A stretch of 64,000 bases of DNA from a virus. Taxonomy: Duplodnaviria > Heunggongvirae > Uroviricota > Caudoviricetes. The notes below the pieces were generated by a model. The model was not told the origin of the DNA. It searched no databases and worked only from the letters and a program-made list of their open reading frames with translations. The stretch is from IMG/VR virus record IMGVR_UViG_3300028887_000066, positions 96,001-160,000 of that record, one strand, 5' to 3'. Made by a program: the position numbers and the translations under genes. Of the stretch, positions 1-52,235 are shown one piece after another (the first letter of the stretch is position 1; each line of letters opens with the position of its first letter).

Positions 1-3000
1 ATACTGATAAGTCGTATCAAGGCTGTTTCCTGTCTCATTCTGTATATTTGAACCTTCGTAAGGCAAAAGCCTGTAACTGTTGGCAAATACGAAGTTATGG
101 TAATCACGGAAGTAGACTATTGACTTAACGTTACCAAGCTCATTATCGAAAGCTTCCTCTCCGTTATAGTCCCATGTCTCAATCTTACCCTCATCATCAG
201 TAGATGTAGTCACATCATCGCTAATCCAAGGAGCGTGACAAAGTGTAAGTGGGTTAGTCTGGTTAGAACCGCCAATCATCAACATATCCTTTGAACCTGA
301 CACGTTCTTGTCATAACCGTAAGTGAGTTTGTCACCCTTTGCAGCACCCCAAGTCATCAAACCGTAGAACTTGGTTTCACCGTTGTACTCAACGAAGAAA
401 AGGAATTCATCCTGCCTCAATGCCAAACGGCTAAGGTCGAAACGCTGTTCGTAGTATTGTGAACCCTCTACGTCTGAACCACCGAGTTTCTGAATCTCGC
501 TTCTGAAACCACGCTGTTTCCTGATGTCCTCATACATACGGAGAGAACCCTGCTTATGGCTCTGCATTGATGAAGCATAGTTAAGCTTACCTACAAGCTT
601 GCTTGCCCTTGGTGTGATAGCAACGATATTATCCTCATCGTCACGTGTCACATACTGCCAATAAGCGTGATTGCTGATAGTGTTGCCGTTAATGTCCTTA
701 TAAACGGTGTTGTCCTCGAATTTCCAAGTACAGTTCCATTTATAGTAAAGCTTTGAAGTAGAACCCTGACCCTTTGCACTCATGTTCTCAATGATACAAG
801 AGTTGTCGGTATCAACCTCGTAGTTACCATATTCATCCTTTGTATCCCTAAGGTAAGTCACGGTAAGAGTACCCTCACTTGCAGCCTTGTTCATATACTC
901 AGGATAACGTCCTGTAAACTTGATTGTACGGTACTTGTTCTTTGCCATATCATAGTTGATAGTACCGTCGGCATTGCATATGTTGTTAGCGTCCTTGTAT
1001 GCTTTCTTGTCGGCAAATGAAGGAAGTGAAGACATATAGTCCTGCTGGATCTCCTGTGTTGAAAGGGCCGCATCCTCATAGATTCTGATGCCGTAGATGT
1101 CAACATCTGCGAAGTCGGAACCGATGACTATATTCTCCATATTTGTGTTCATGGTATCATCCTCAGAGTATGTGAACTCACGGTTAATAGTACCATTGAC
1201 ATATGTTCTTATGAAGTTTGCGCGATAGTCCGTACCATTGATATTCAACGTATGCTGATACTTGACGTTCACTGTGAAGTGAGTCCTTGTATCTTCCTGA
1301 TACTCAGTATCCTGATTGAGCGTATCTGTCAAGTTGTTTGTGTATACGTAAGCAATGTTAGGATACATTATGAAGCCATAAGGCTGTGTCCTTGAAAGCT
1401 TTGTAGACATATTCACAACAGGCTCAGTATCATCGGATACGTTCCTGAACGCATAGTCAACCTCAATTGTAACGCCATAGTGAAGTGTATTGTGGTTAGA
1501 AGCCGTGTCAAACACCCTGTAAGGGATAGTCACCTTAGAACCTGCAAGCAAACGGAGACACTTGTTTCCGCTCTCATCAGTAGTCCAACCACCGTTAAGC
1601 CAGTCCATATTAGACCAATTTACACCACTGATAGTGCTACCGTTAAGTCCGTTATAGATTGTCTCCTTGTCAGAGCTTGAGTTAGACCTTGCCTTTGGAT
1701 CAAGGATGAAACCATTAGCCATTACAGTAGGAGCGAAATTCTCTGCTGTATTGACCATAATCTGCTGTTGTCCGATATGTGGGGTGTCGCTTGTAATGGT
1801 CTGACCATTATCAACATACACGCGAACATTTGACGTAACAGCCGTAGTAGCGGCATCGGTAATGTTAAACTCAATCTGAGTGGAAAGCATATGCTTTACC
1901 TTTGGAGTCACAGAAGCCTGTGAAACCTCCTCGTATATTGATGTAAAGTTATTGTTCCAGAACACAAACTTGAGGTTTGTTGAAGAAGCACCGCAGAATG
2001 CATATTCGAAAATGTCATTCATAGCCCAGTTGGAGATTGAGTTGTTCACATTGTTGATGACAAGCTCAATACCATTCTCCTCATCAGATACGAGGAATTG
2101 GAATGTCTTCACCTCACTCTTCACGGTATCGGTACATACCCAATACTGACCATTGTACAAACCCTCTCCAAGCTGTCCGATATTGATGGATGGTCTTACG
2201 TTACCGACAAGGTTTTCATACTTGTGTGTGTATACCTGATCACCAATGTCCAAATGGTCTGTCTGCTCTGTATATCCTGCACTCAATATCTTTACATAAA
2301 GAGTCTTTGAAATAGAACCTGTAGTGTCGAAGTTAAGGATGATGTCGCTACCCACGCTGAAAGGATTCTGATACTCTGTAGCAAAGTTAAGTCCGAAAGT
2401 TGACTGGTCGATAGTGAATGTGATCTGACGTGTCAACTGAGACTCACTACCACGCCATGCAAGACGGACTCTCACAACGGTATCCTTAGTAATGTAATCA
2501 CTTACGTCAATTGAGGTGTAGTTATTATCATCAGCTTCATTGTCAATAGATGACAAAGACATTGAACGCCTACGGGTGAATGAGTTACTTGTTCCTGCCG
2601 CCGTAGAGATTGTCAGAGTACCTGTCTCCTTCAACTGTGTGAGGCTGTCAGAACCTGCCCTCTTTACCTTAGAATTAGCGCGAACCCTAAGATAAACCTT
2701 ACTTGCTGTCGTGATAATTTCAAGATCGTCATCATCAGGCTTCTCAAGTGAAACTGAATACACATCAAGAGTCGCTGCACCTCCAGCAGGAAGTTTCACG
2801 CTGTCGATAACCAATTCTGAATATGTCTCCTTATCAGAAACCCACTTTTCGTAGTTTGCTAAAGAGTTGAACATATAAAGATATGGTTCCTCGTCGATCA
2901 TCTCAAGACTTGTGTATCCGACCTTACCCTTCAATTCAGCCCTGACGAATTTCTGCACGGCATCTCCACTAAAAGGAAGGTTTCCGTCTTTCGGATCCAT

Positions 3001-43650: not shown

Positions 43651-44064
43651 TTAAAAATGACCGTATGGACGACCATTTGAATATCTGTCGCTATATCTGT
43701 AAGTACCATCGTCAATACCGTCATCTACATCATCATTGTCGTCATAGTAACCTTTGCTTCTCTCGATAACCTTCATTATGGTGTCATCATCTGTCGGTTT
43801 TCCCTGACGCGCAAGAATTTGTTTAATGATATTGTATTGCATGGCACGTTTCTTGTCTGCCTTGTTTCCATTTTCAGGCTCCCTTTCCATCTGTTCAATG
43901 TCTGCATCGGTAGGCTCCCCAAGATCACTATCGTCATCATCCTCATCCGTATACCAATTGTCATCATCGTCTTCAATGTCACTACCATCAAACATTGATT
44001 CTTTCAGCATACCTGCAATAGTGTTCCTGACCATCTCACGAAGTTTATTCTCGGTAATTTTCAT
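43651..44064 (-). CDS. Acidic putative internal head protein
   Basis: MKITENKLREMVRNTIAGMLKE N-terminus. Confidence 0.6.
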   Translation of the reverse strand: MKITENKLREMVRNTIAGMLKESMFDGSDIEDDDDNWYTDEDDDDSDLGEPTDADIEQMEREPENGNKADKKRAMQYNIIKQILARQGKPTDDDTIMKVIERSKGYYDDNDDVDDGIDDGTYRYSDRYSNGRPYGHF

Positions 44065-44073
44065 AGTTTCGTT

Positions 44074-44433
44074 TTAATAATCATCTTCCTCGTCATCATA
44101 CGAGTAATTATCCATATTCATTATAAGGTTATCCATTTCAAAATCGCCATATGCATCGTTTCTGAGTCCAATACGCCCATTTTGAAGGAGTCTTGGATGA
44201 CCGCTGCATATAGCATCAAAAATCTCACCCTTTTCGTGTAAGGCACTACAGTTATATGTACGCCCGTTGCTAAAATACACAAGGAAATCATCATCTACCA
44301 CACGATGAAGCAATTTTTCCAGCTCGTCGTATTCAAGATACCTCTCCTCGTATTTAGCCATTGTATCTTCACGAAGCCCCATTCTAAGAAAATCCTTGAA
44401 CTGGGATTCTGTTAATGTTATCCTTTTTCCCAT
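44074..44433 (-). CDS. Putative internal head protein
   Basis: MGKRITLTESQFKDFLRMGLRE N-terminus. Confidence 0.6.
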   Translation of the reverse strand: MGKRITLTESQFKDFLRMGLREDTMAKYEERYLEYDELEKLLHRVVDDDFLVYFSNGRTYNCSALHEKGEIFDAICSGHPRLLQNGRIGLRNDAYGDFEMDNLIMNMDNYSYDDEEDDY

Positions 44434-44451
44434 TTTTTACAACACTTTGAG

Positions 44452-44469
44452 TATTTATTATTATAAATA
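44452..44469. promoter_or_regulatory. Back-to-back putative late promoters (TATTTAT on the sense strand)
   Basis: tatttatt and tataaata between divergent genes; the same motif precedes most late genes. Confidence 0.65.
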
Positions 44470-44492
44470 TGGTGTAATACCGAAAAATACTA

Positions 44493-45278
44493 ATGATAAA
44501 GGACGAATTAGAAAAGCAAAGAAAACTGACCAATACCAACCCCACGGAAAAACAGAAAAAGGCAGAAAACTATAAAATGGGGCATATACGAATTAACGGT
44601 TTTCAAATAAGCATAGAGAATCCAAAAGGAAGCTATAGAAGAGGAAAGGATTCAAACGGCAAAGAATGGAAAACCCTGATGCATCATGATTATGGCTATT
44701 TTACAAAAACAGTCGGAAAGGACGGTGATGCTATTGATGTGTTCATTGGGCCGCATTATGATTCCACAAAGATTTTTGCCGTTGATCAAAAATTCGGTAA
44801 TAAATTTGATGAAACGAAAGTAATGTTCTGTTTCAATAACATCGATGAGGCGAAGAAAGGATACCTCTCAAACTATGAAAAAGATTGGAAGGGATTTTGG
44901 AAAATAACAGAAACAGATATTGATACATTTAAAAAATGGCTATATGATGGACACAGGCAGTATAAGCCATTTTTCCAATATAAAGAAATAAAAAAGCAGA
45001 AACCAAATATGAAAGAGATTAAATTAACTGAAAGCAAACTTCAGGAACTCATAAGAGAATCTATTGCAGAAGTCGTAAACCGTAACGACTACGATAACGA
45101 CAAAGCATACCAATATGACAGAGTTATGGATGTTCAAAATGCTAAGTCTGAGGTTGCAGATGCAATAAAAGCAGTTATAGAAAAATACCAATTGAAAAAT
45201 GCTGAAATCTACAGGGTATTAGAAACAATGATAAAATATTTCTGTCCAGCACGGACAAATGGTATGATACAACAGTAA
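44493..45278 (+). CDS. Inorganic pyrophosphatase-like domain (polyvalent-protein type) with C-terminal putative head-targeting helix
   Basis: NYKMGH..ISIENPKGSYRRG..HDYGYF..GKDGDAIDVFIG..FDETKVM; then IKLTESKLQELIRESIAE. Confidence 0.75.
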   Translation: MIKDELEKQRKLTNTNPTEKQKKAENYKMGHIRINGFQISIENPKGSYRRGKDSNGKEWKTLMHHDYGYFTKTVGKDGDAIDVFIGPHYDSTKIFAVDQKFGNKFDETKVMFCFNNIDEAKKGYLSNYEKDWKGFWKITETDIDTFKKWLYDGHRQYKPFFQYKEIKKQKPNMKEIKLTESKLQELIRESIAEVVNRNDYDNDKAYQYDRVMDVQNAKSEVADAIKAVIEKYQLKNAEIYRVLETMIKYFCPARTNGMIQQ

Positions 45279-45300
45279 ATTGTGGTTTATAAATAATTAT

Positions 45301-45337
45301 TCCCGATAAGCTAGCATTATGCTTATCGGGATTTTTC
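45301..45337. terminator. Intrinsic terminator, possibly bidirectional
   Basis: tcccgataagc...gcttatcggga stem plus T run. Confidence 0.75.
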
Positions 45338-45347
45338 TTTGTAGTAA

Positions 45348-45493
45348 TATAGAAGAAAAGAGTAAAAATCGGGAAGAAGGCTCCACCATTCCTTCTTCCC
45401 TTTTGCAGTCCATTTTTACATCGGTAGCGAAATTCCAATTCTATGTAAACGGTGCAAATATCGTGATGTAATACATCTTCTCTTTTCGCTATA
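45348..45493 (-). ncRNA. Unassigned structured RNA, about 145 nt
   Basis: Closing stem, three internal hairpins, own late promoter motif at 45495-45501. Confidence 0.55.
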
Positions 45494-45539
45494 CATAAAT
45501 ACTTGGGTTATATATTTTCTATAAAAAATTATAGATATT

Positions 45540-45573
45540 TTTGGCTATTCAAATATAAAACCTTATCTTTGCA
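45540..45573 (+). promoter_or_regulatory. Bacteroidetes sigma-A-type promoter upstream of the tRNA leader
   Basis: TTTG...TATCTTTGC; two late-type TATTTAT motifs follow (about 45628 and 45688). Confidence 0.75.
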
Positions 45574-45760
45574 AAGAAAATAAAAAAAAAAATAGTGAAT
45601 TTTTGATCACTTTTCAAATTAATGGTATATTTATTGAGTAAAAACCACATTTTTTAAAAAATGTTTGAAGTTTTGAAAATATTCATATATTTATAATAGA
45701 AATGTGATTTGAAAATAAACCAATAAGGAAATAATAAAGAGAAATACTATTAGAAATAAA

Positions 45761-45886
45761 ATGGCAAACATTATGTATTCACATATTAGTCTCAGTTCAG
45801 CGTATTCTCCATCATTTGTCGATGGAGGCTATATTGACGCGCCGTTTTTTAATAGTAGTGGAGGGAAGACAGAAAATATAGAATAG
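45761..45886 (+). CDS. Putative attenuator leader peptide, 41 aa (MANIMYSHISLSSAYSPSFVDGGYIDAPFFNSSGGKTENIE)
   Basis: Translated by hand; its 3' end is complementary to the terminator 5' arm. Confidence 0.7.
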   Translation: MANIMYSHISLSSAYSPSFVDGGYIDAPFFNSSGGKTENIE

Positions 45887-45959
45887 AAAAATTGATCAAA
45901 CAAAAAGCGTGGAAAAGAATCCACAACCTTTTCAAAAGGTACTATATATATTTCTCCTG

Positions 45960-46000
45960 ACCTCCAAAGATAACAAATCCTTGGGGGTTTTTCTTTTTCT
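45960..46000 (+). terminator. Attenuator terminator directly before tRNA-Phe
   Basis: acctccaaaga-taacaaa-tccttgggggt stem-loop followed by ttttctttttct. Confidence 0.8.
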
Positions 46001-46002
46001 AT

Positions 46003-46075
46003 GGGGGAGAAGCTAACTAAGTAGAAGCGCTGGACTGAAAATCCAGAGGAGTTGGAGCGTTACCAACCTCCCCCA
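46003..46075 (+). tRNA. tRNA-Phe(GAA), atypical T-loop
   Basis: GGGGGAG/CTCCCCC acceptor; ctgga-ctGAAaa-tccag; T-loop AGCGTTA. Confidence 0.85.
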
Positions 46076-46090
46076 CTAAAACTAATTAAA

Positions 46091-46330
46091 ATGGAACTGA
46101 AGAATATTGTTAAAGGAAGTGCAAAACTTCTTTTTATTAAGTCAGGCGGCATTGCTGTGTATCAACTGAATTCTGTTGACGGTAAGAAATATCAACTTGA
46201 AATTGATCTTTCAGACAAGCATGATGTTGGAGAAACTGCTACATTTGAAACAGAATATGAAAAGTCGTTAATCCTTATGCGTTGGATACGGAGATCAATA
46301 GAAAATGAAACATTGTTTGAGATACTTTAG
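46091..46330 (+). CDS. Hypothetical protein
   Basis: 79-aa ORF MELKNIVKG..LMRWIRRSIE. Confidence 0.65.
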   Translation: MELKNIVKGSAKLLFIKSGGIAVYQLNSVDGKKYQLEIDLSDKHDVGETATFETEYEKSLILMRWIRRSIENETLFEIL

Positions 46331-46349
46331 AAAAAAATTAATCCCGTTT

Positions 46350-46382
46350 TTGGCCAATTCAAAAAATAGACGTATATTTGCA
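46350..46382 (+). promoter_or_regulatory. Bacteroidetes-type promoter
   Basis: TTTG...TATATTTGC. Confidence 0.7.
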
Positions 46383-46409
46383 TTGTAATTCAAAAACAGT
46401 CAAAAGAAC

Positions 46410-46613
46410 GACGGGATAGCTCAAACGGTAGAGCGCAATCGACGTTATTCTCCGTGACGATGGAATAAAGAATGACCGAAACATGATTGGGGCTGAGAAA
46501 GCAGCGATCTTATTACGTATAGATACGAAACTGTCGTGTATTCTAGAGCGCACAGCAGATGTAGTTGAAAGAAAATTTGAAAGTTATGGGAGGTTCGAAT
46601 CCTTGCCCCGTTG
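46410..46613 (+). ncRNA. tRNA-like RNA with expanded anticodon loop and variable region (about 205 nt)
   Basis: Acceptor GACGGGA/CCCCGTT; D arm TAGCTCAAACGGTAGAGC; T arm GGTTCGAATCC. Confidence 0.7.
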
Positions 46614-46651
46614 ACAATTTAACAAAATTTAGAATAGAAAGGGAAAATTTT

Positions 46652-46777
46652 ATGATTATCAAATGCCCAAAGTGCCAACAGGATGTTAAAATTGACATCG
46701 CACACGCAGTAGATGAGAATGGTGAGGTGTTTATGTGTCCTCATTGTGGTTATCATTTCAGATATACAGAACGATGA
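46652..46777 (+). CDS. Zinc-ribbon protein
   Basis: CPKC..CPHC. Confidence 0.7.
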   Translation: MIIKCPKCQQDVKIDIAHAVDENGEVFMCPHCGYHFRYTER

Positions 46778-47337
46778 AAGGCAGTTCTAACACAAAACAG
46801 TTCAAGAAATTCCAAATAAGATGGGCTGAAAAGTTAGGATATGAAAATGACCCATATCTTATTAGATGGACATTTATATTCTTTGGCTATTCATTAAGAA
46901 TCCACCATTGGATTAAATCAGATGATAACAGGTTTTTCCACGATCACAGTGCCGATTTACTAAGTATTGTGTTAAAGGGTCGGTATTACAATGTGAAGCC
47001 TATTTATCCTGACAAAAATCCTACCGATATTGTTGAAAAAACGTATTTTGAGGATGGCGACGGCTTTTCATTCGGAGGAGAAGGAAAAAATGAAAAATGG
47101 TGTTATGTAGAGGGTATTTTCAATTCATTGCACAATTTCCTTCATATGAATCGCTCTATATGGTTTTCTAAAGCCGAGGACAGACATTATCTAAGTATAC
47201 CGAAAGAAGGTGCGTGGACATTGATGTTCGAAGGAAAACCAAGACATAAGTGGGGATTTTATGTGAATGGGCATAAGTGGAGACCGTTAAGATATTTCCA
47301 TAAATACGGAATAAAACAGGACAAAAATTATCAATAA
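46774..47337 (+). CDS. Cupin-like protein
   Basis: LRIHHWIKSDD..FHDH..H..AWTLMF.G..KWGFY. Confidence 0.65.
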   Translation: MKGSSNTKQFKKFQIRWAEKLGYENDPYLIRWTFIFFGYSLRIHHWIKSDDNRFFHDHSADLLSIVLKGRYYNVKPIYPDKNPTDIVEKTYFEDGDGFSFGGEGKNEKWCYVEGIFNSLHNFLHMNRSIWFSKAEDRHYLSIPKEGAWTLMFEGKPRHKWGFYVNGHKWRPLRYFHKYGIKQDKNYQ

Positions 47338-47465
47338 AACAGCGAAAAAGGGTTTGTATTAGCAAGTCAAAACCTGAAACCCTGAACCTCCCTAAGTCGC
47401 CAAGCGTCTTATAGGTGACAGACCACGGGGTAATTCCCAAGGAGTGCAGTTAGTGGCTTATTTTC

Positions 47466-47543
47466 GCGGGATTGGTGTAGCTGAAGGCGCACGTCAGACT
47501 TCCAATCTGAAGGCATGCACGGGTTTGATCCCCGTATTCCGCT
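47466..47543 (+). tRNA. tRNA-Gly(TCC)
   Basis: tcaga-ctTCCaa-tctga; GCGGGAT/ATTCCGC acceptor. Confidence 0.85.
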
Positions 47544-47646
47544 CAAAGTTTATAATGTGGCATTCTCAAGTACAAGGAACACACCATTCTTTATATGGTT
47601 ATCCGTTTCCCTAGGCGGATTGTAAAATAGCACAGTAGGGGTGAAT

Positions 47647-47720
47647 GCGGGTGTAGCTCAGTTGGTTAGAGCATTACCTTGCCAAGGTAAGGGTCGTGAG
47701 TTCGAACCTCATCACCCGCT
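47647..47720 (+). tRNA. tRNA-Gly(GCC)
   Basis: Canonical cloverleaf, ttacc-ttGCCaa-ggtaa. Confidence 0.95.
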
Positions 47721-47743
47721 CAAAATTAATTGATAATAACAAA

Positions 47744-47817
47744 GGCGGAATAGCTCAGTTTGGTAGAGCGGAGGAGTCATAACCCTCAGGTCACAAGTTC
47801 GAGCCTTGTTTCCGCTA
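47744..47817 (+). tRNA. tRNA-Met(CAT), elongator-like
   Basis: GGCGGAA/TTCCGCT acceptor, CAT anticodon. Confidence 0.85.
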
Positions 47818-47827
47818 CATAAAAAAT

Positions 47828-47944
47828 AATTCTTGATAAGAGGTAAACGGAGGTAACAAGGTCACTACTGAACCGTATTTCAGGGTGTGTGACAAAGGTC
47901 TATGAGGTGTTACGGGAAACTGCATAGGAGTATTATTGAGAATT
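47828..47944 (+). ncRNA. Unassigned structured inter-tRNA RNA
   Basis: 12-bp closing stem aattcttgataa/ttattgagaatt and two internal hairpins. Confidence 0.5.
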
Positions 47945-47949
47945 TTTAT

Positions 47950-48023
47950 GGGCCGATAGCTCAGTTGACTAGAGCATCTGATTTGCACTCAGAAGGTCGC
48001 GGGTTTGAGTCCCGCTCGGTCCA
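47950..48023 (+). tRNA. tRNA-Ala(TGC)
   Basis: G3:U70 pair, TGC anticodon. Confidence 0.93.
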
Positions 48024-48083
48024 CTACGTTGATAATCAATAAATTATAAAGTTTTGTTAAAATAAAAGTTTAACTAATAAAAT

Positions 48084-48311
48084 ATGGGAAAAAGCAGAAA
48101 AGGTGGGCTTCTGTCTCGTAGAAAGAGTGCATTAGCCAGATTGGAGGCACAATACAAGGAATTCAAGAGTGCCAATGAAGATAAGAAGCCTTGGACAACT
48201 ACCCGCAACGGAAAGCCTTATGAGCATGCAGGTAGGAAATACAATGCTGAGTGTGAACGTCTCTCAAAGGAGATTTCAATTCTTAAAGAGAAAATTACAC
48301 GAGGTAAATAA
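48084..48311 (+). CDS. Small basic protein
   Basis: 75-aa K/R-rich ORF inside the tRNA array. Confidence 0.7.
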   Translation: MGKSRKGGLLSRRKSALARLEAQYKEFKSANEDKKPWTTTRNGKPYEHAGRKYNAECERLSKEISILKEKITRGK

Positions 48312-48317
48312 GGAAAA

Positions 48318-48422
48318 AATCAATACCAAGAGTTTTTAGACATGACGGTATCAGATATTGATATGTAGGATAAAACTTATTTCGTCAAAATACATCCAAG
48401 AATTTTAGATTGGTATTTGATT
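48318..48422 (+). ncRNA. Unassigned structured inter-tRNA RNA
   Basis: aatcaatacca/tggtatttgatt closing stem; nested tgacg/cgtca stem. Confidence 0.45.
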
Positions 48423-48426
48423 AAAT

Positions 48427-48510
48427 GGGAGTGCGCCGAAGTTGGAGAGTCGGGGCAGACTGTAAATCTGTTGCCCTTGGGCTGAGTAGGTTCGAATCCT
48501 ACCACTCCCA
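48427..48510 (+). tRNA. tRNA-Tyr(GTA)
   Basis: Long variable arm; gcaga-ctGTAaa-tctgt. Confidence 0.95.
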
Positions 48511-48522
48511 CAAATAAATAAT

Positions 48523-48594
48523 GGTCTATTCGTATAACGGTTATTATACTGGACTGTCTATCCTGGGACGAGGGTTCGACTCCCTCATAGACCG
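48523..48594 (+). tRNA. tRNA-Asp(GTC)
   Basis: GGTCTAT/ATAGACC acceptor, G73, GTC anticodon. Confidence 0.9.
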
Positions 48595-48667
48595 CGTAAC
48601 TAATTGAATGTCAATAAATTACAAAAGTCCCAAACTTTCTCCAAGAGGGATTAATAAATAATTGGAG

Positions 48668-48881
48668 TGGATATAGACGAAACTATCCAATGTAGTTAAG
48701 TATTTCGGTGTCTGGAGCAAGTGGTGACTGCAAACAGAACAACAACGATTGTAAAACTTAGTGAATGGCACAAAAGTTAGACGGGGAGCTGAAGATTGTT
48801 ATTCAGGAAATGCCAAGATTGAAAGCCTAACCGAGGTGGAAGTTTTTATTCAACAGCTCAGAACAAATGAATGGAAAACTT
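48668..48881 (+). ncRNA. Unassigned, probably pseudoknotted RNA
   Basis: Several crossing complementary segments; no ORF. Confidence 0.5.
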
Positions 48882-48898
48882 GACGATATTGGCAATAT

Positions 48899-48971
48899 AT
48901 AGGTGTAGTTCAGTTGGTAGAATGCGGCATTTGGGATGCTGTGGTCGCAGGTTCGAGTCCTGTCACCTATA
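48899..48971 (+). tRNA. tRNA-Pro(TGG)
   Basis: cggca-ttTGGga-tgctg; canonical D and T arms. Confidence 0.9.
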
Positions 48972-48996
48972 CACAAAAACCAAAATACAGGAGTAA

Positions 48997-49069
48997 GCCC
49001 TGTTAGTTCAACCGAATAGAACGTGTGACTACGGATCATAAGATACGGGTTTGAATCCTGTACGGGGTA
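48997..49069 (+). tRNA. tRNA-Arg(ACG)
   Basis: tgtga-ctACGga-tcata. Confidence 0.9.
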
Positions 49070-49075
49070 CAATTT

Positions 49076-49211
49076 TAAGGAATATAGCAACTTACATTGG
49101 CTTATGTCGAAGGGTATTAATACGGCTATGGAGCAGGCTGTAACATTTAGTTTATTCGTGGGCATATACAATGACGAGGCTTCATAAGTATCTAAGTTGT
49201 TCATATCCTTA
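49076..49211 (+). ncRNA. Unassigned rod-like RNA (6S-like architecture)
   Basis: taaggaatatagcaactta/taagttgttcatatcctta and gcttatg/cataagt nested stems. Confidence 0.55.
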
Positions 49212-49215
49212 TTTT

Positions 49216-49303
49216 GGAGGCGTGGCAGAGTGGTTTAATGCAACGGTCTTGAAAACCGTCGGTCGTTAATAGCGGCCCGTAGGTTCGAATCCTACCGCCT
49301 CCG
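49216..49303 (+). tRNA. tRNA-Ser(TGA)
   Basis: Long variable arm, G73. Confidence 0.95.
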
Positions 49304-49349
49304 CGAGAAATAATAATGTTGTTTGTCAGCAATAAAAAAACTAATAAAA

Positions 49350-49883
49350 ATGAAAAATCAGGAATTTAAAATTGATGCCGAAGCAGGTATCGTCGTATTT
49401 TGCCAAAAATCGCATGGTAATGTCTTTATTTCTAAGACAAAAGTAAGTGAAAAGGACAAGTTCAACATCGGTATCGGTCAATTGATTACAATGAAGCGTA
49501 ATGAAATTGAAATCAGGAAAGCCGATATTAAATCAATGCTAACTGTAGCAGACGAATGTAAAGATTTGGCATATATCCACAATGGTAGCACGGCACGAAA
49601 ATTGTACAGCAATTTTGCGCAAATCGCCGCTGAGAAGGTAAGTATGTCTCGTAATCACATCCGTGAGTTGAAACAGGATCTTGAAACCTTGTATAATGGC
49701 ACTTATGAGGTTAAGCCATATGCAGAAATCCTCGAAAGTCATAAAGTTATTCGTAATGGAAGTGAGGAAGACAAGGCAGAGTTGTTCAAGAAACCATATG
49801 CCGTACCAAAGGAAATCGTTGATGGTACACATATGTTTGAAATTGTAGGTGGCACTGTTAAGCTTAAGCCTATTGAAAAGTAA
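49350..49883 (+). CDS. Hypothetical protein
   Basis: 177-aa ORF within the tRNA array. Confidence 0.7.
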   Translation: MKNQEFKIDAEAGIVVFCQKSHGNVFISKTKVSEKDKFNIGIGQLITMKRNEIEIRKADIKSMLTVADECKDLAYIHNGSTARKLYSNFAQIAAEKVSMSRNHIRELKQDLETLYNGTYEVKPYAEILESHKVIRNGSEEDKAELFKKPYAVPKEIVDGTHMFEIVGGTVKLKPIEK

Positions 49884-49911
49884 ATGGGTAGATTTTTCTA
49901 CCCACAAAAAC

Positions 49912-49999
49912 GGAGAGTTGGGGGAGTGGCTTAACCCACCGTCCTGCTAAGACGGCGTACACCAAAAGTGTGCCGATGGTTCGAATCCATCACTCTCCG
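49912..49999 (+). tRNA. tRNA-Ser(GCT)
   Basis: Long variable arm, GCT anticodon. Confidence 0.95.
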
Positions 50000-50015
50000 C
50001 GAAAAATTATTATAT

Positions 50016-50088
50016 GGGACTGTTGGCCGAGAGATCAGGCGCAAGTTTGTGGCACTTGTTTACGTTGGTTTGAGTCCAACACAGCCCC
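50016..50088 (+). tRNA. tRNA-His(GTG)
   Basis: G-1:C73 pair; caagt-ttGTGgc-acttg. Confidence 0.88.
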
Positions 50089-50098
50089 CAAATCTAAC

Positions 50099-50173
50099 AC
50101 TCTCATAACTCAGTTGGTTCAGAGTGCCACTCTTACAAAGTGGAAGTCATAGGTTCAAGTCCTATTGAGAGTA
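50099..50173 (+). tRNA. tRNA-Val(TAC)
   Basis: ccact-ctTACaa-agtgg. Confidence 0.92.
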
Positions 50174-50184
50174 CGAAATTATAT

Positions 50185-50258
50185 TGGGCTGTAGCTCAGT
50201 TGGTCAGAGTATCACACTGATAATGTGAGGGTCGTGGATTCAAGTTCCACCAGCCCAA
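50185..50258 (+). tRNA. tRNA-Ile(GAT)
   Basis: tcaca-ctGATaa-tgtga. Confidence 0.92.
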
Positions 50259-50268
50259 CAATATTGAT

Positions 50269-50350
50269 GGACGTATGGGGGAATTGGTAGACCCGCCTGA
50301 TTCAAAATCAGGTTTCGCAAGAAGTGCAGGTTCGAGTCCTGCTACGTCTA
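50269..50350 (+). tRNA. tRNA-Leu(CAA)
   Basis: Leu-type D loop and variable arm; cctga-ttCAAaa-tcagg. Confidence 0.93.
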
Positions 50351-50358
50351 CTTTTACT

Positions 50359-50440
50359 ACCCCTGTGCTGGAATTGGTAGACAGGTCAGATTAAGGATCT
50401 GATGCCGAAAGGCGTGCGGGTTCGAGTCCCGCCAGGGGTA
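50359..50440 (+). tRNA. tRNA-Leu(AAG)
   Basis: Leu scaffold; tcaga-ttAAGga-tctga. Confidence 0.9.
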
Positions 50441-50452
50441 CTTATATTACTT

Positions 50453-50851
50453 GGGTCTGTTTTGGAATTGATACCAAGAATCGGGCGGTATATAAGCATG
50501 CAGGGTGAGTGGTCATTGCCCTTAAAATCATTGATCAGACAAATTAAATGGTAACTATGAGTATGCTCTCGCTGCTTAATCGAAGTACAGTAGATTAATC
50601 GCTTAATCCTTACACAAGGTGTTCGGACGAGACATCACCCCAAGGTAAATTCACGAAGCCGAGGAAATGGTGGTGCAGTAAATTCGGGAATAGTCACTCA
50701 AAAGCCCTATTTTGGTGATGAAACTTTAAGGGATAAGGGACGAATATGTTGTTCAGGTCGTATTTGTCCACGAATAAATCATTCTGAACTAAGCATGTAG
50801 AAAGTATATGGTTCACTTGAGTAGACGACGGTTCAACCCCGTCCAGATCCA
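50453..50851 (+). ncRNA. ssrA: tmRNA; tag (A)GNYEYALAA
   Basis: GGGTCTG/CAGATCC acceptor with G3:U70; T arm; tag ORF ggt aac tat gag tat gct ctc gct gct taa. Confidence 0.95.
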
Positions 50852-50856
50852 CAAAC

Positions 50857-50928
50857 AGGGGATTAGTTTAGTGGTTAGAATGCATGACTCCAAATCTTGA
50901 GACAACTGTTCGATTCGGTTATCCCCTG
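50857..50928 (+). tRNA. tRNA-Trp(CCA)
   Basis: AGGGGAT/ATCCCCT acceptor, G73, CCA anticodon. Confidence 0.88.
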
Positions 50929-50950
50929 CAATTACTCCACCAAATTTTAA

Positions 50951-50991
50951 ACTGATACTTGGACTCCACCTCCTTGTATCAGTATTTTTTT
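50951..50991 (+). terminator. Terminator closing the RNA array
   Basis: actgatac/gtatcagt stem plus T run. Confidence 0.6.
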
Positions 50992-51027
50992 GTATTTTTA
51001 TCATATATTAAATATGAATTATAACAT

Positions 51028-51321
51028 ATGAAGAAGAAAGTAAATTTAGTGTTAATAGCTGGAGTCATTCTTTTTGTTATTTGTGTCTTATTTTCATTGA
51101 TCAGCTGTACCGATAATCAAATATCAAGGAAATTTGGCGGTACAACAGAAATCAGGTTAGAAAAGGGTCAGAAACTTCTTGAAGCAACATGGAAGGATAA
51201 TAATCTTTGGTATCTTACTGAACCAATGGATGATGACTATACACCAAAGACAAAGGTTTTCAGGGAAGACTCAAACTTTGGTGTATTGGAAGGAAAGGTA
51301 CTATTTATTGAATCTAAGTAG
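51028..51321 (+). CDS. Putative lipoprotein
   Basis: Hydrophobic N-terminus, LISC lipobox, KFGG..LL.ATWK..LWYLT. Confidence 0.7.
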   Translation: MKKKVNLVLIAGVILFVICVLFSLISCTDNQISRKFGGTTEIRLEKGQKLLEATWKDNNLWYLTEPMDDDYTPKTKVFREDSNFGVLEGKVLFIESK

Positions 51322-51323
51322 CT

Positions 51324-51506
51324 ATGGTAAAAATCCTATCATTACGGAAAAAACCGACGGTAAAATGGACTAAACAGGTGGAATGCCCGATGTGTGGGGC
51401 ATTGCTTGAATATACTAATCTTGACGTTCAACAAAGGATGTGCCAATACAATGAAATAGATGATGTCATCACGTGTCCAAATTGCAATAAATGGTTTTGT
51501 ATATAA
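51324..51506 (+). CDS. Zinc-ribbon protein
   Basis: CPMC..CPNC. Confidence 0.7.
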   Translation: MVKILSLRKKPTVKWTKQVECPMCGALLEYTNLDVQQRMCQYNEIDDVITCPNCNKWFCI

Positions 51507-51508
51507 AA

Positions 51509-51658
51509 ATGGAGTTTAAGAATATTGAATTTTATAAAGCCATCATTGATTGCTTGGCAAAGGTGGATGAACACCCCAAAGATATAATATGTAAATTACC
51601 AAGAACACGAATAGATGAAAAATTCTCTTTCTTAAAAAGAGAAGCCGATAAAAAATAA
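51509..51658 (+). CDS. Hypothetical 49-aa protein
   Basis: Translated by hand; fills the gap in an operon. Confidence 0.5.
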   Translation: MEFKNIEFYKAIIDCLAKVDEHPKDIICKLPRTRIDEKFSFLKREADKK

Positions 51659-51667
51659 TTAAAAGAA

Positions 51668-51997
51668 ATGAACCCAAATAAGAAAAAGGAAATAGTCGAA
51701 AGAGTGATATTTAAATACCAGCTCTATAAATCGGCAATGCTTGAGTACATTAAGAAGCAAAATACAGAAAAAGAAGCTGTAACATTGTCAGGCACTATGA
51801 GTGAATCGTCTGAAGATTATTACAACACAGCGTCTGAAATGCCTATGATAAAACCAAACATCTATTATTTTATGGATGCCAATGAAAGGAAGGTACTCAA
51901 AAAAATAATGGAAAGAAAAGCGGGATATGAAAACGTAAACCTGAATAAATTACCAAACAAATACAAAGGAAAGAATAATGGTACTGAAGTTAGTTAG
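51668..51997 (+). CDS. Hypothetical protein
   Basis: ORF track. Confidence 0.6.
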   Translation: MNPNKKKEIVERVIFKYQLYKSAMLEYIKKQNTEKEAVTLSGTMSESSEDYYNTASEMPMIKPNIYYFMDANERKVLKKIMERKAGYENVNLNKLPNKYKGKNNGTEVS

Positions 51998-52235
51998 GGG
52001 CTGCATATGTGACAGTATGACGGTGGATGATATTGAGGAGATAGACCTTACGGATGAGCAGAGGGAAAAGGTAATAGAAACCATAATGAAAAACCTGAAG
52101 CCCGAAGATTTGAATTATCTCCTTCAAAAAACAATTCCGCTATTTGCGCAGGAGGAACATTTCGACGATGAACCATGCGAATGCTGTGGCGACTATGTAG
52201 AAGAATACATATGGACTATTGATGATGTAAATTGA
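51978..52235 (+). CDS. Hypothetical Cys-containing acidic protein
   Basis: GCIC..CECCGD. Confidence 0.65.
   Translation: MVLKLVRGCICDSMTVDDIEEIDLTDEQREKVIETIMKNLKPEDLNYLLQKTIPLFAQEEHFDDEPCECCGDYVEEYIWTIDDVN

Follow-up and report, generated by a model that had tools for sequence, protein, structure and literature searches.

A candidate leader-peptide attenuator in front of the sole tRNA-Phe gene detected in a large phage genome

A compact sequence element precedes the sole tRNA-Phe gene detected in a 356-kb phage genome, and we give a little under an even chance to the reading that it is a translation-coupled (leader-peptide) transcription attenuator gating this tRNA gene together with a 79-aa ORF. 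A more specific proposal, which we hold only tentatively, is that the attenuator would sense the supply of Phe-tRNA at a Pro-Phe(-Phe) site in the leader, a falling supply switching on transcription of the phage tRNA-Phe. The stretch of DNA analysed, here called the window, is 64,000 nucleotides long (bases 96001-160000 of the virus record), and positions refer to it unless they are marked as genome positions. The features are collected in Table 1.

Table 1. Features in and around the putative attenuator, with positions in the window
Feature	Position	Strand	Basis or remark
InPase-domain protein gene	44493-45278	+	First gene on the plus strand after the polarity switch
P1, host-type (Bacteroidetes sigma-A-like) promoter; TTTG, 20 nt, TAtcTTTG	45540-45571	+	Sequence; class enriched genome-wide
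P2, promoter-like; TTTG, 20 nt, TATATTTA	45602-45633	+	-7 box with G to A
P3, promoter-like; TTTG, 18 nt, TATATTTA	45664-45693	+	-7 box with final G to A
Leader ORF, 41 codons, TAG stop	45761-45886	+	ORF list; open in 19 loci
Pro28-Phe29-Phe30 (CCG TTT TTT), proposed sensor	45842-45850	+	Pro-Phe invariant in 19 of 19 peptides
S1, putative antiterminator 5′ strand, within the last 10 codons of the ORF	45859-45886	+	Pair list
Hairpin H1, GUGGA / UCCAC	45909-45924	+	Folding; kept in clade B with different loops
Hairpin H2, ACCUUU / AAAGGU	45926-45940	+	Folding; kept in all loci
S2, putative antiterminator 3′ strand; last 8 nt are the terminator 5′ arm	45942-45966	+	Pair list
Intrinsic terminator, stem-loop 45959-45989 followed by a U-tract	45959-46000	+	Folding; hairpin of about -12.5 kcal/mol
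tRNA-Phe, anticodon GAA	46003-46075	+	Rfam tRNA (RF00005), 50.2 bits against a gathering threshold of 29
79-aa ORF	46091-46330	+	ORF list; behind tRNA-Phe, same transcription unit
Second host-type promoter; TTTG, 21 nt, TAtaTTTG	46348-46380	+	Consensus class

The physical parts named in the original prediction were all recovered. The 41-codon ORF is present in the ORF list with a 41-aa product, and the tandem Phe codons TTT TTT are its codons 29-30 (45845-45850). When 45850-45975 was folded without the 3′ arm of the terminator, the minimum free energy (MFE) structure was the proposed antiterminator together with both predicted small hairpins, H1 and H2; the claimed pairing of the ORF end with the region 5′ of the terminator was thus reproduced (z = -4.5; an equally good fold in 0 of 200 shuffles). 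The core of the antiterminator is UGGAGG (45859-64) paired with CCUCCA (45961-66), and its further helices are AG:CU, AGAAA:UUUCU, UAUA:UAUA, and AUAG:CUAU, with H1 and H2 enclosed. If the 3′ arm is included in the fold, the terminator forms and S1 slips into a terminator-compatible register. The terminator stem has 9 bp, a 1x1 loop, and 3 bp and is followed by UUUUUCUUUUUCUAU. The terminator ends 2 nt 5′ of tRNA-Phe, as had been described; Rfam confirmed the tRNA and its GAA anticodon. S1:S2 and the terminator are mutually exclusive because S2 overlaps the bottom of the terminator 5′ arm. This part of the prediction stood in a narrower form, as the shared nucleotides, 45961-45966, are confined to the lowest 6 bp of the terminator.

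In the proposed mechanism, transcripts from the promoters at 45540-45693 would carry the 41-codon ORF, the last 28 nt of which (S1) could pair with S2 and thereby exclude the terminator hairpin. A ribosome translating through S1 to the stop codon would keep S1 single-stranded, the terminator would form, and transcription would end 2-10 nt short of tRNA-Phe. With peptidyl-Pro in the P site and the first Phe codon in the A site, a ribosome would not quite reach S1; if it were held there, S1:S2 would form and RNA polymerase would read into tRNA-Phe. A low supply of Phe-tRNA would in this manner lead to more tRNA-Phe synthesis. Peptidyl-Pro is slow to donate its peptide from the P site, and the Pro-Phe codon pair would therefore be a sensitive point. 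We infer the coupling of transcription and translation in the host, the direction of the switch, and its signal, and the leader ORF is presumably translated.

The mechanism was examined in silico by masking the RNA under a ribosome (P site -12 to +11..15) at each codon, the RNA ending at the terminator stem, in five sequences (window, L035, L036, L171, and L174). In all five, the antiterminator peaked with the A site at either the invariant Pro codon or the first Phe codon, depending on the sequence. Expressed as equilibrium pair probabilities, which are not kinetic, the peak reached 100% in L036 and L171, 79-85% in L174, 41-52% in the window, and 12-14% in L035. Since the baseline in the window was 24%, the shift predicted for its clade is modest, and the predicted switch is weak both in this clade and in L035. 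At each later codon the antiterminator fell to 0%, because the ribosome then covers S1, and at the stop codon it was about 0% (at most 3%, in L036). With a ribosome at the stop codon, the predicted share of terminator was 100%, in line with the earlier claim that a ribosome finishing the leader masks the antiterminator. The companion claim, that a stall at the tandem Phe codons frees it, held for one codon of the two: S1 stays free while the first Phe codon occupies the A site, but with the second Phe codon there the footprint reaches S1, and the tandem site would thus work through its first codon only. The antiterminator and terminator states lie about 3 kcal/mol apart in the window, L036, and L171 and about 6-7 kcal/mol apart in L035 and L174. 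Barriers between the states, which are path estimates and likewise not kinetic, were 5-11 kcal/mol, the direct path from antiterminator to terminator requiring about 7 kcal/mol in the window and about 11 kcal/mol in L036.

The module consisting of the ORF, H1, H2, S2, the terminator, and tRNA-Phe is kept in 19 loci belonging to two clades of related jumbo phages. Clade A comprises the window, near-identical strains, and L170, and clade B comprises L035-L040 and L171-L178. The contigs were reached via the 79-aa ORF, and a profile of the leader peptide led to ten peptide clusters; among the near-identical strains (L026-L034), variation was too small to be informative. The leader ORF is 38-44 codons long and open in each locus, its ATG is invariant, and two indels 5′ of S1, of 6 and 3 nt, are both in frame. 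The terminator stem is invariant in both clades and is followed by 5-7 U in clade B. In all six of the clade B loci scanned, the module heads a tRNA array. The conservation of the leader ORF that had been anticipated in related phages was thus found, but the anticipated compensatory changes are missing from the antiterminator.

In both clades, the gene that follows the leader encodes tRNA-Phe(GAA) and has homologous flanks on both sides. The clade B tRNA-Phe is canonical and only 61% identical to that of the window, and the latter is 81% identical to the tRNA-Phe of unrelated large phages. Replacement of the tRNA by another tRNA-Phe speaks for a functional tie of the leader to Phe.

Wider searches did not extend the family. 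The peptide profile found no third clade among 1.84 billion representatives, a search of IMG/VR with the 261-aa neighbour gave no match, and terminase relatives (about 60% identity; L009-L017 and G001-G005) had no tRNA beside the terminase and no leader match. Within this genome, no comparable leader was found at the heads of the other tRNA clusters. The DNA pattern ATATTTCTCCTGACCTCC had a single match in IMG/VR, a chance match in a coding region, and was discarded. A 17-mer used for one metagenome scan gave chance matches for the most part, and among the matches listed only L151 was genuine. This metagenome contig keeps the leader and terminator, with window position 46019 joined to about 46172, a deletion in which the bulk of tRNA-Phe is lost together with the 5′ half of the 79-aa ORF. 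In L172 and L173, the leader, terminator, and tRNA-Phe are kept and the start of the 78-aa ORF is lost. Assembly error is possible in all three contigs.

Pairing between S1 and S2 forms in both clades, at -19 to -20 kcal/mol, even though S1 differs between them (GGAGGGAAGACAGAAAAUAUAGAAUAG versus GGAGGAACAGAUAGAAGUAUAA) and partly different nucleotides pair with the invariant S2; the pairing expected in homologous loci is to this extent maintained. Furthermore, synonymous recoding of S1 under phage codon usage attains the observed energy in 4% of cases for the window and 1.3-2.5% for clade B, so that the codon choice in S1 favours pairing (p = 0.04 and p = 0.013-0.025, respectively). The energy of the upstream complement ranks 9th among 137 terminator-like sites of the same genome. 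Collectively, the complementarity of S1 and S2 exceeds chance moderately. RNAalifold found no antiterminator pair changed on both sides, the one change being A-U to G-U in L174 only; covariation is absent because S2 is invariant, all loci carrying the same S2 except for one position that differs between the clades. The CUAU of S2 is invariant in clade B even though it is partnerless there. Given the lack of covariation, the invariance of CUAU without a partner, and the rank of 9 among 137, S1:S2 pairing is best described as supported but not proven.

The general logic of a leader attenuator, as originally proposed, finds a real anatomy that is kept in a second clade but lacks one classical component in the window. 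A stable 1:2 (anti-antiterminator or pause) hairpin was found neither in the window (0 kcal/mol) nor in its clade. In clade B, the Phe codons and the first bases of S1 form a weak hairpin, CCAUUUUUUGAAAGUGG (-3.3 kcal/mol), which in the folding model would be the counterpart of segment 1:2.

Identification of the gene at 46003-46075 rests on the Rfam match and on phages with similar genes, in which these are annotated as tRNA-Phe. ARAGORN does not call it; across the genome, this program found 31 tRNAs and a tmRNA and no tRNA-Phe. No sequence between the conserved terminator and tRNA-Phe fits a promoter, and since ARAGORN detects no other tRNA-Phe, read-through must occur. The gene has the T-loop AGCGUUA and a D-loop without GG. 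These elbow changes are linked: D-loop TAAG or TTAG replaces TTGG, with loss of G18, and T-loop AGCGTTA or AGCGTAA replaces TTCGATT. Two other large phages, L002 (about 2847-2919) and L005 (minus strand), share both changes, and a compensatory T-stem change (GTTGG/CCAAC versus GGTGG/CCACC) accompanies the variant. Neither of these two phages carries the leader peptide. The elbow variant looks like a selected one, and it is a matter of speculation that it evades enzymes or defences which read the tRNA elbow.

Large phage contigs contain 281 homologues of the 79-aa ORF, which matches no Pfam family and none of whose Atlas neighbours is informative. Behind it, the internal promoter expected near 46350 was located as a host-type consensus site, which marks the downstream boundary of the putative regulated unit. 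Immediately 3′ of this promoter lies a tRNA-like sequence (46411-46612) called by neither ARAGORN nor Rfam; its 5′ part is a normal acceptor/D-arm and its 3′ part a GGTTCGAATCC T-arm, with about 125 extra nt between them. A tmRNA is present at 50453-50852, and a tRNA with a CUA anticodon (amber-suppressor type) lies outside the window (genome 253584-253656). TAG recoding was considered and rejected. In spite of the CUA-anticodon tRNA there is no sign of it, since ORFs gain less length when TAG is taken as a sense codon than when TGA or TAA is, and TAG closes 20 of 183 long ORFs. Read-through of the leader TAG would add two codons before a TGA.

Upstream, gene polarity switches between the strands at about 44450. 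A 10-bp hairpin, CCCGATAAGC / GCTTATCGGG followed by ATTTTTCTTT (45301-45337), was read by eye 3′ of the InPase-domain gene, and a terminator at this place may insulate the leader unit from transcription upstream. The original prediction placed a host-type promoter at 45540, and the site fits TTTG-N20-TAnnTTTG. The wider pattern TTTG-N18-22-TAnnTTTG has 93 copies genome-wide versus about 10 in shuffled sequences, with a common extended consensus, TTTGGCC..TCAAA; because of this enrichment and consensus, a host within the Bacteroidetes is very probable. Two further promoters, at 45626 and 45686, had been classed as late-type. This classification was not borne out: TATATTTAT occurs 29 times genome-wide versus about 21 times in shuffles, a class that is not enriched, and both sites are better read as host-type -7 boxes ending in A. 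Clade B keeps the TATATTTAT box at the position of P3. Elsewhere, genome positions 155600-192600 (window 59606-64000 and beyond) hold about 45 consensus host-type promoters on a single strand, spaced 400-1800 bp apart and many of them immediately after a T-run, which would make this stretch a long series of short early transcription units.

The most serious competitor to an attenuator is that the ORF is simply a gene for a small protein, ended by an intrinsic terminator of its own, in which case tRNA-Phe would be made constitutively from leak-through transcripts cut by RNase P, and S1:S2, H1, and H2 would do no more than give structure or stability to the mRNA 3′ end. We regard this as unlikely, with several observations in its favour. 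First, the leader peptide shows conservation beyond the Phe codons: the residues YSHIS, DG, and SGG are conserved, and pN/pS is 0.13 between the window and L170 and 0.5-0.9 between the clades. The peptide is better conserved than most leader peptides, which counts against an attenuator, as does the low share of Phe, only 3 of its 41 residues. Two variable features count against an attenuator as well: the residue after the invariant Pro-Phe is F in 17 of 19 peptides, L in L035, and Y in L170, and the C-terminal tail of the peptide and the stop position shift with the length of an A-run (the stop is variable in clade B). Second, a hairpin/T-run terminator of a protein gene, behind a normal ORF (genome 195139, minus strand), ends 3 nt before tRNA-Lys (genome about 195140-195200), so that the Phe leader is not the only place where a terminator adjoins a tRNA. 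Third, the complementarity is not extreme among the terminators of this genome and the switch is weak in the clade of the window.

A small gene would, however, leave unexplained the invariance of S2 5′ of the stem, the pairing-favouring codon choice in S1, the recurrence of a tRNA-Phe after replacement of the tRNA, and the location of Pro-Phe exactly at the switch-competent position. Moreover, the peptide belongs to no Pfam family and has no homologues beyond the two clades.

The hairpins and S2 could instead form a recognition site, like nut or put, within a timing device: the terminator would block host polymerase early, and a phage antitermination factor or a modified polymerase would later override it. 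Jumbo phages often reprogramme transcription, and two small conserved hairpins and an invariant single strand just 5′ of a terminator would suit such a site. The details of these hairpins make this reading improbable. H1 and H2 are retained but their loops vary freely between loci, and the changes in H2 include a compensatory U-A to C-G in L035, a C-G to U-G in L178, and a 5-nt loop deletion in L174. S2 is unique within the genome, which provides no second site of the kind, and a factor-dependent site is less likely on both counts. Such a device would also give the conserved ORF no role, and no antiterminator gene was identified.

The invariance of S2 bears as well on the idea that the 3′ UTR, from H1 to the terminator, yields a small regulatory RNA with S2 as its seed, the pairing with S1 being incidental or auto-inhibitory. 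Hairpins, an invariant pyrimidine-rich single strand, and a Rho-independent terminator are the usual architecture of such RNAs, and S2 stays constant even where it has no S1 partner. We consider this more improbable still, as no target was identified, the linkage to tRNA-Phe is left unexplained, and both clades retain the pairing with S2 although their S1 sequences differ. A weak promoter within S2, starting at the foot of the terminator and driving tRNA-Phe directly, is very improbable: TATATTTC (45947-45954) is one mismatch from a -7 box and resembles the TAnnTTTG and TATATTTA boxes, but it has no TTTG 18-21 nt upstream (no -33 element), its motif is not enriched genome-wide, and a transcript starting as predicted, at about 45959-45961, would still carry the terminator hairpin in full.

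Compared to known systems, the putative attenuator most resembles the leaders of E. coli pheA (pheL), pheST (pheM), and the trp and his operons. Like them, it has Phe codons in a short leader ORF, antiterminator and terminator structures that exclude one another, an intrinsic terminator, and a fold chosen by the ribosome, the last being predicted here. It differs in several features. First, those leaders regulate a biosynthetic enzyme or a synthetase, whereas the gene here is a tRNA in a phage of a Bacteroidetes-type host. Second, there are 2-3 sensor Phe codons here compared to 5-7 in classical Phe leaders. Third, the 1:2 hairpin is weak or absent and segment 2 ends at or before the stop codon. 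T-box and known leader families were rejected as candidates in the absence of any Rfam match: cmscan of 44000-52000 at E <= 1 found no Phe, Trp, His, Thr, or Leu leader and no T-box. A T-box shares the competition between antiterminator and terminator in answer to the state of a specific tRNA, but it has a specifier loop and a UGGN bulge, both of which are missing here, where a conserved ORF is carried instead; furthermore, T-boxes control synthetase and amino-acid genes rather than tRNA genes. The lambda nut and HK022 put sites likewise present small hairpins in a phage transcript 5′ of a terminator. Sites of this type have conserved loops and usually occur several times, in contrast to the variable loops and single occurrence here, and the antiterminator here would pair directly with the terminator arm. 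By analogy, the element would work like a trp/phe-type attenuator and yet belong to no curated leader family. The tRNA clusters of T4, T5, and jumbo phages are similar to the present one in combining a tRNA array with interspersed small ORFs and early promoters.

To our knowledge, almost nothing is known about the control of phage tRNA expression. Consistent with the original prediction, which knew of no phage tRNA operon controlled in this way, the open-access literature yielded no description of a tRNA gene or an array of phage tRNAs under a leader-peptide attenuator. Phage tRNAs counter host tRNA-cleaving defences (PMC10264068, PMC11464382, PMC11555353), and a sensor of this kind would thus have a plausible use; the link to anticodon nucleases or starvation suggested earlier is speculation. 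If the element is only a small gene with a terminator, the finding is an ordinary one. If the attenuator is real and senses Phe-tRNA, it would be the first known leader-peptide attenuator controlling a tRNA gene and, in a compact sensor of about 240 nt, a feedback sensor of tRNA depletion, for example by host tRNA-cleaving defences. Classical attenuation would then reach a new class of target genes and hosts without Shine-Dalgarno initiation, and the phage would gauge translation capacity at the level of single codons and respond with the tRNA that matches.
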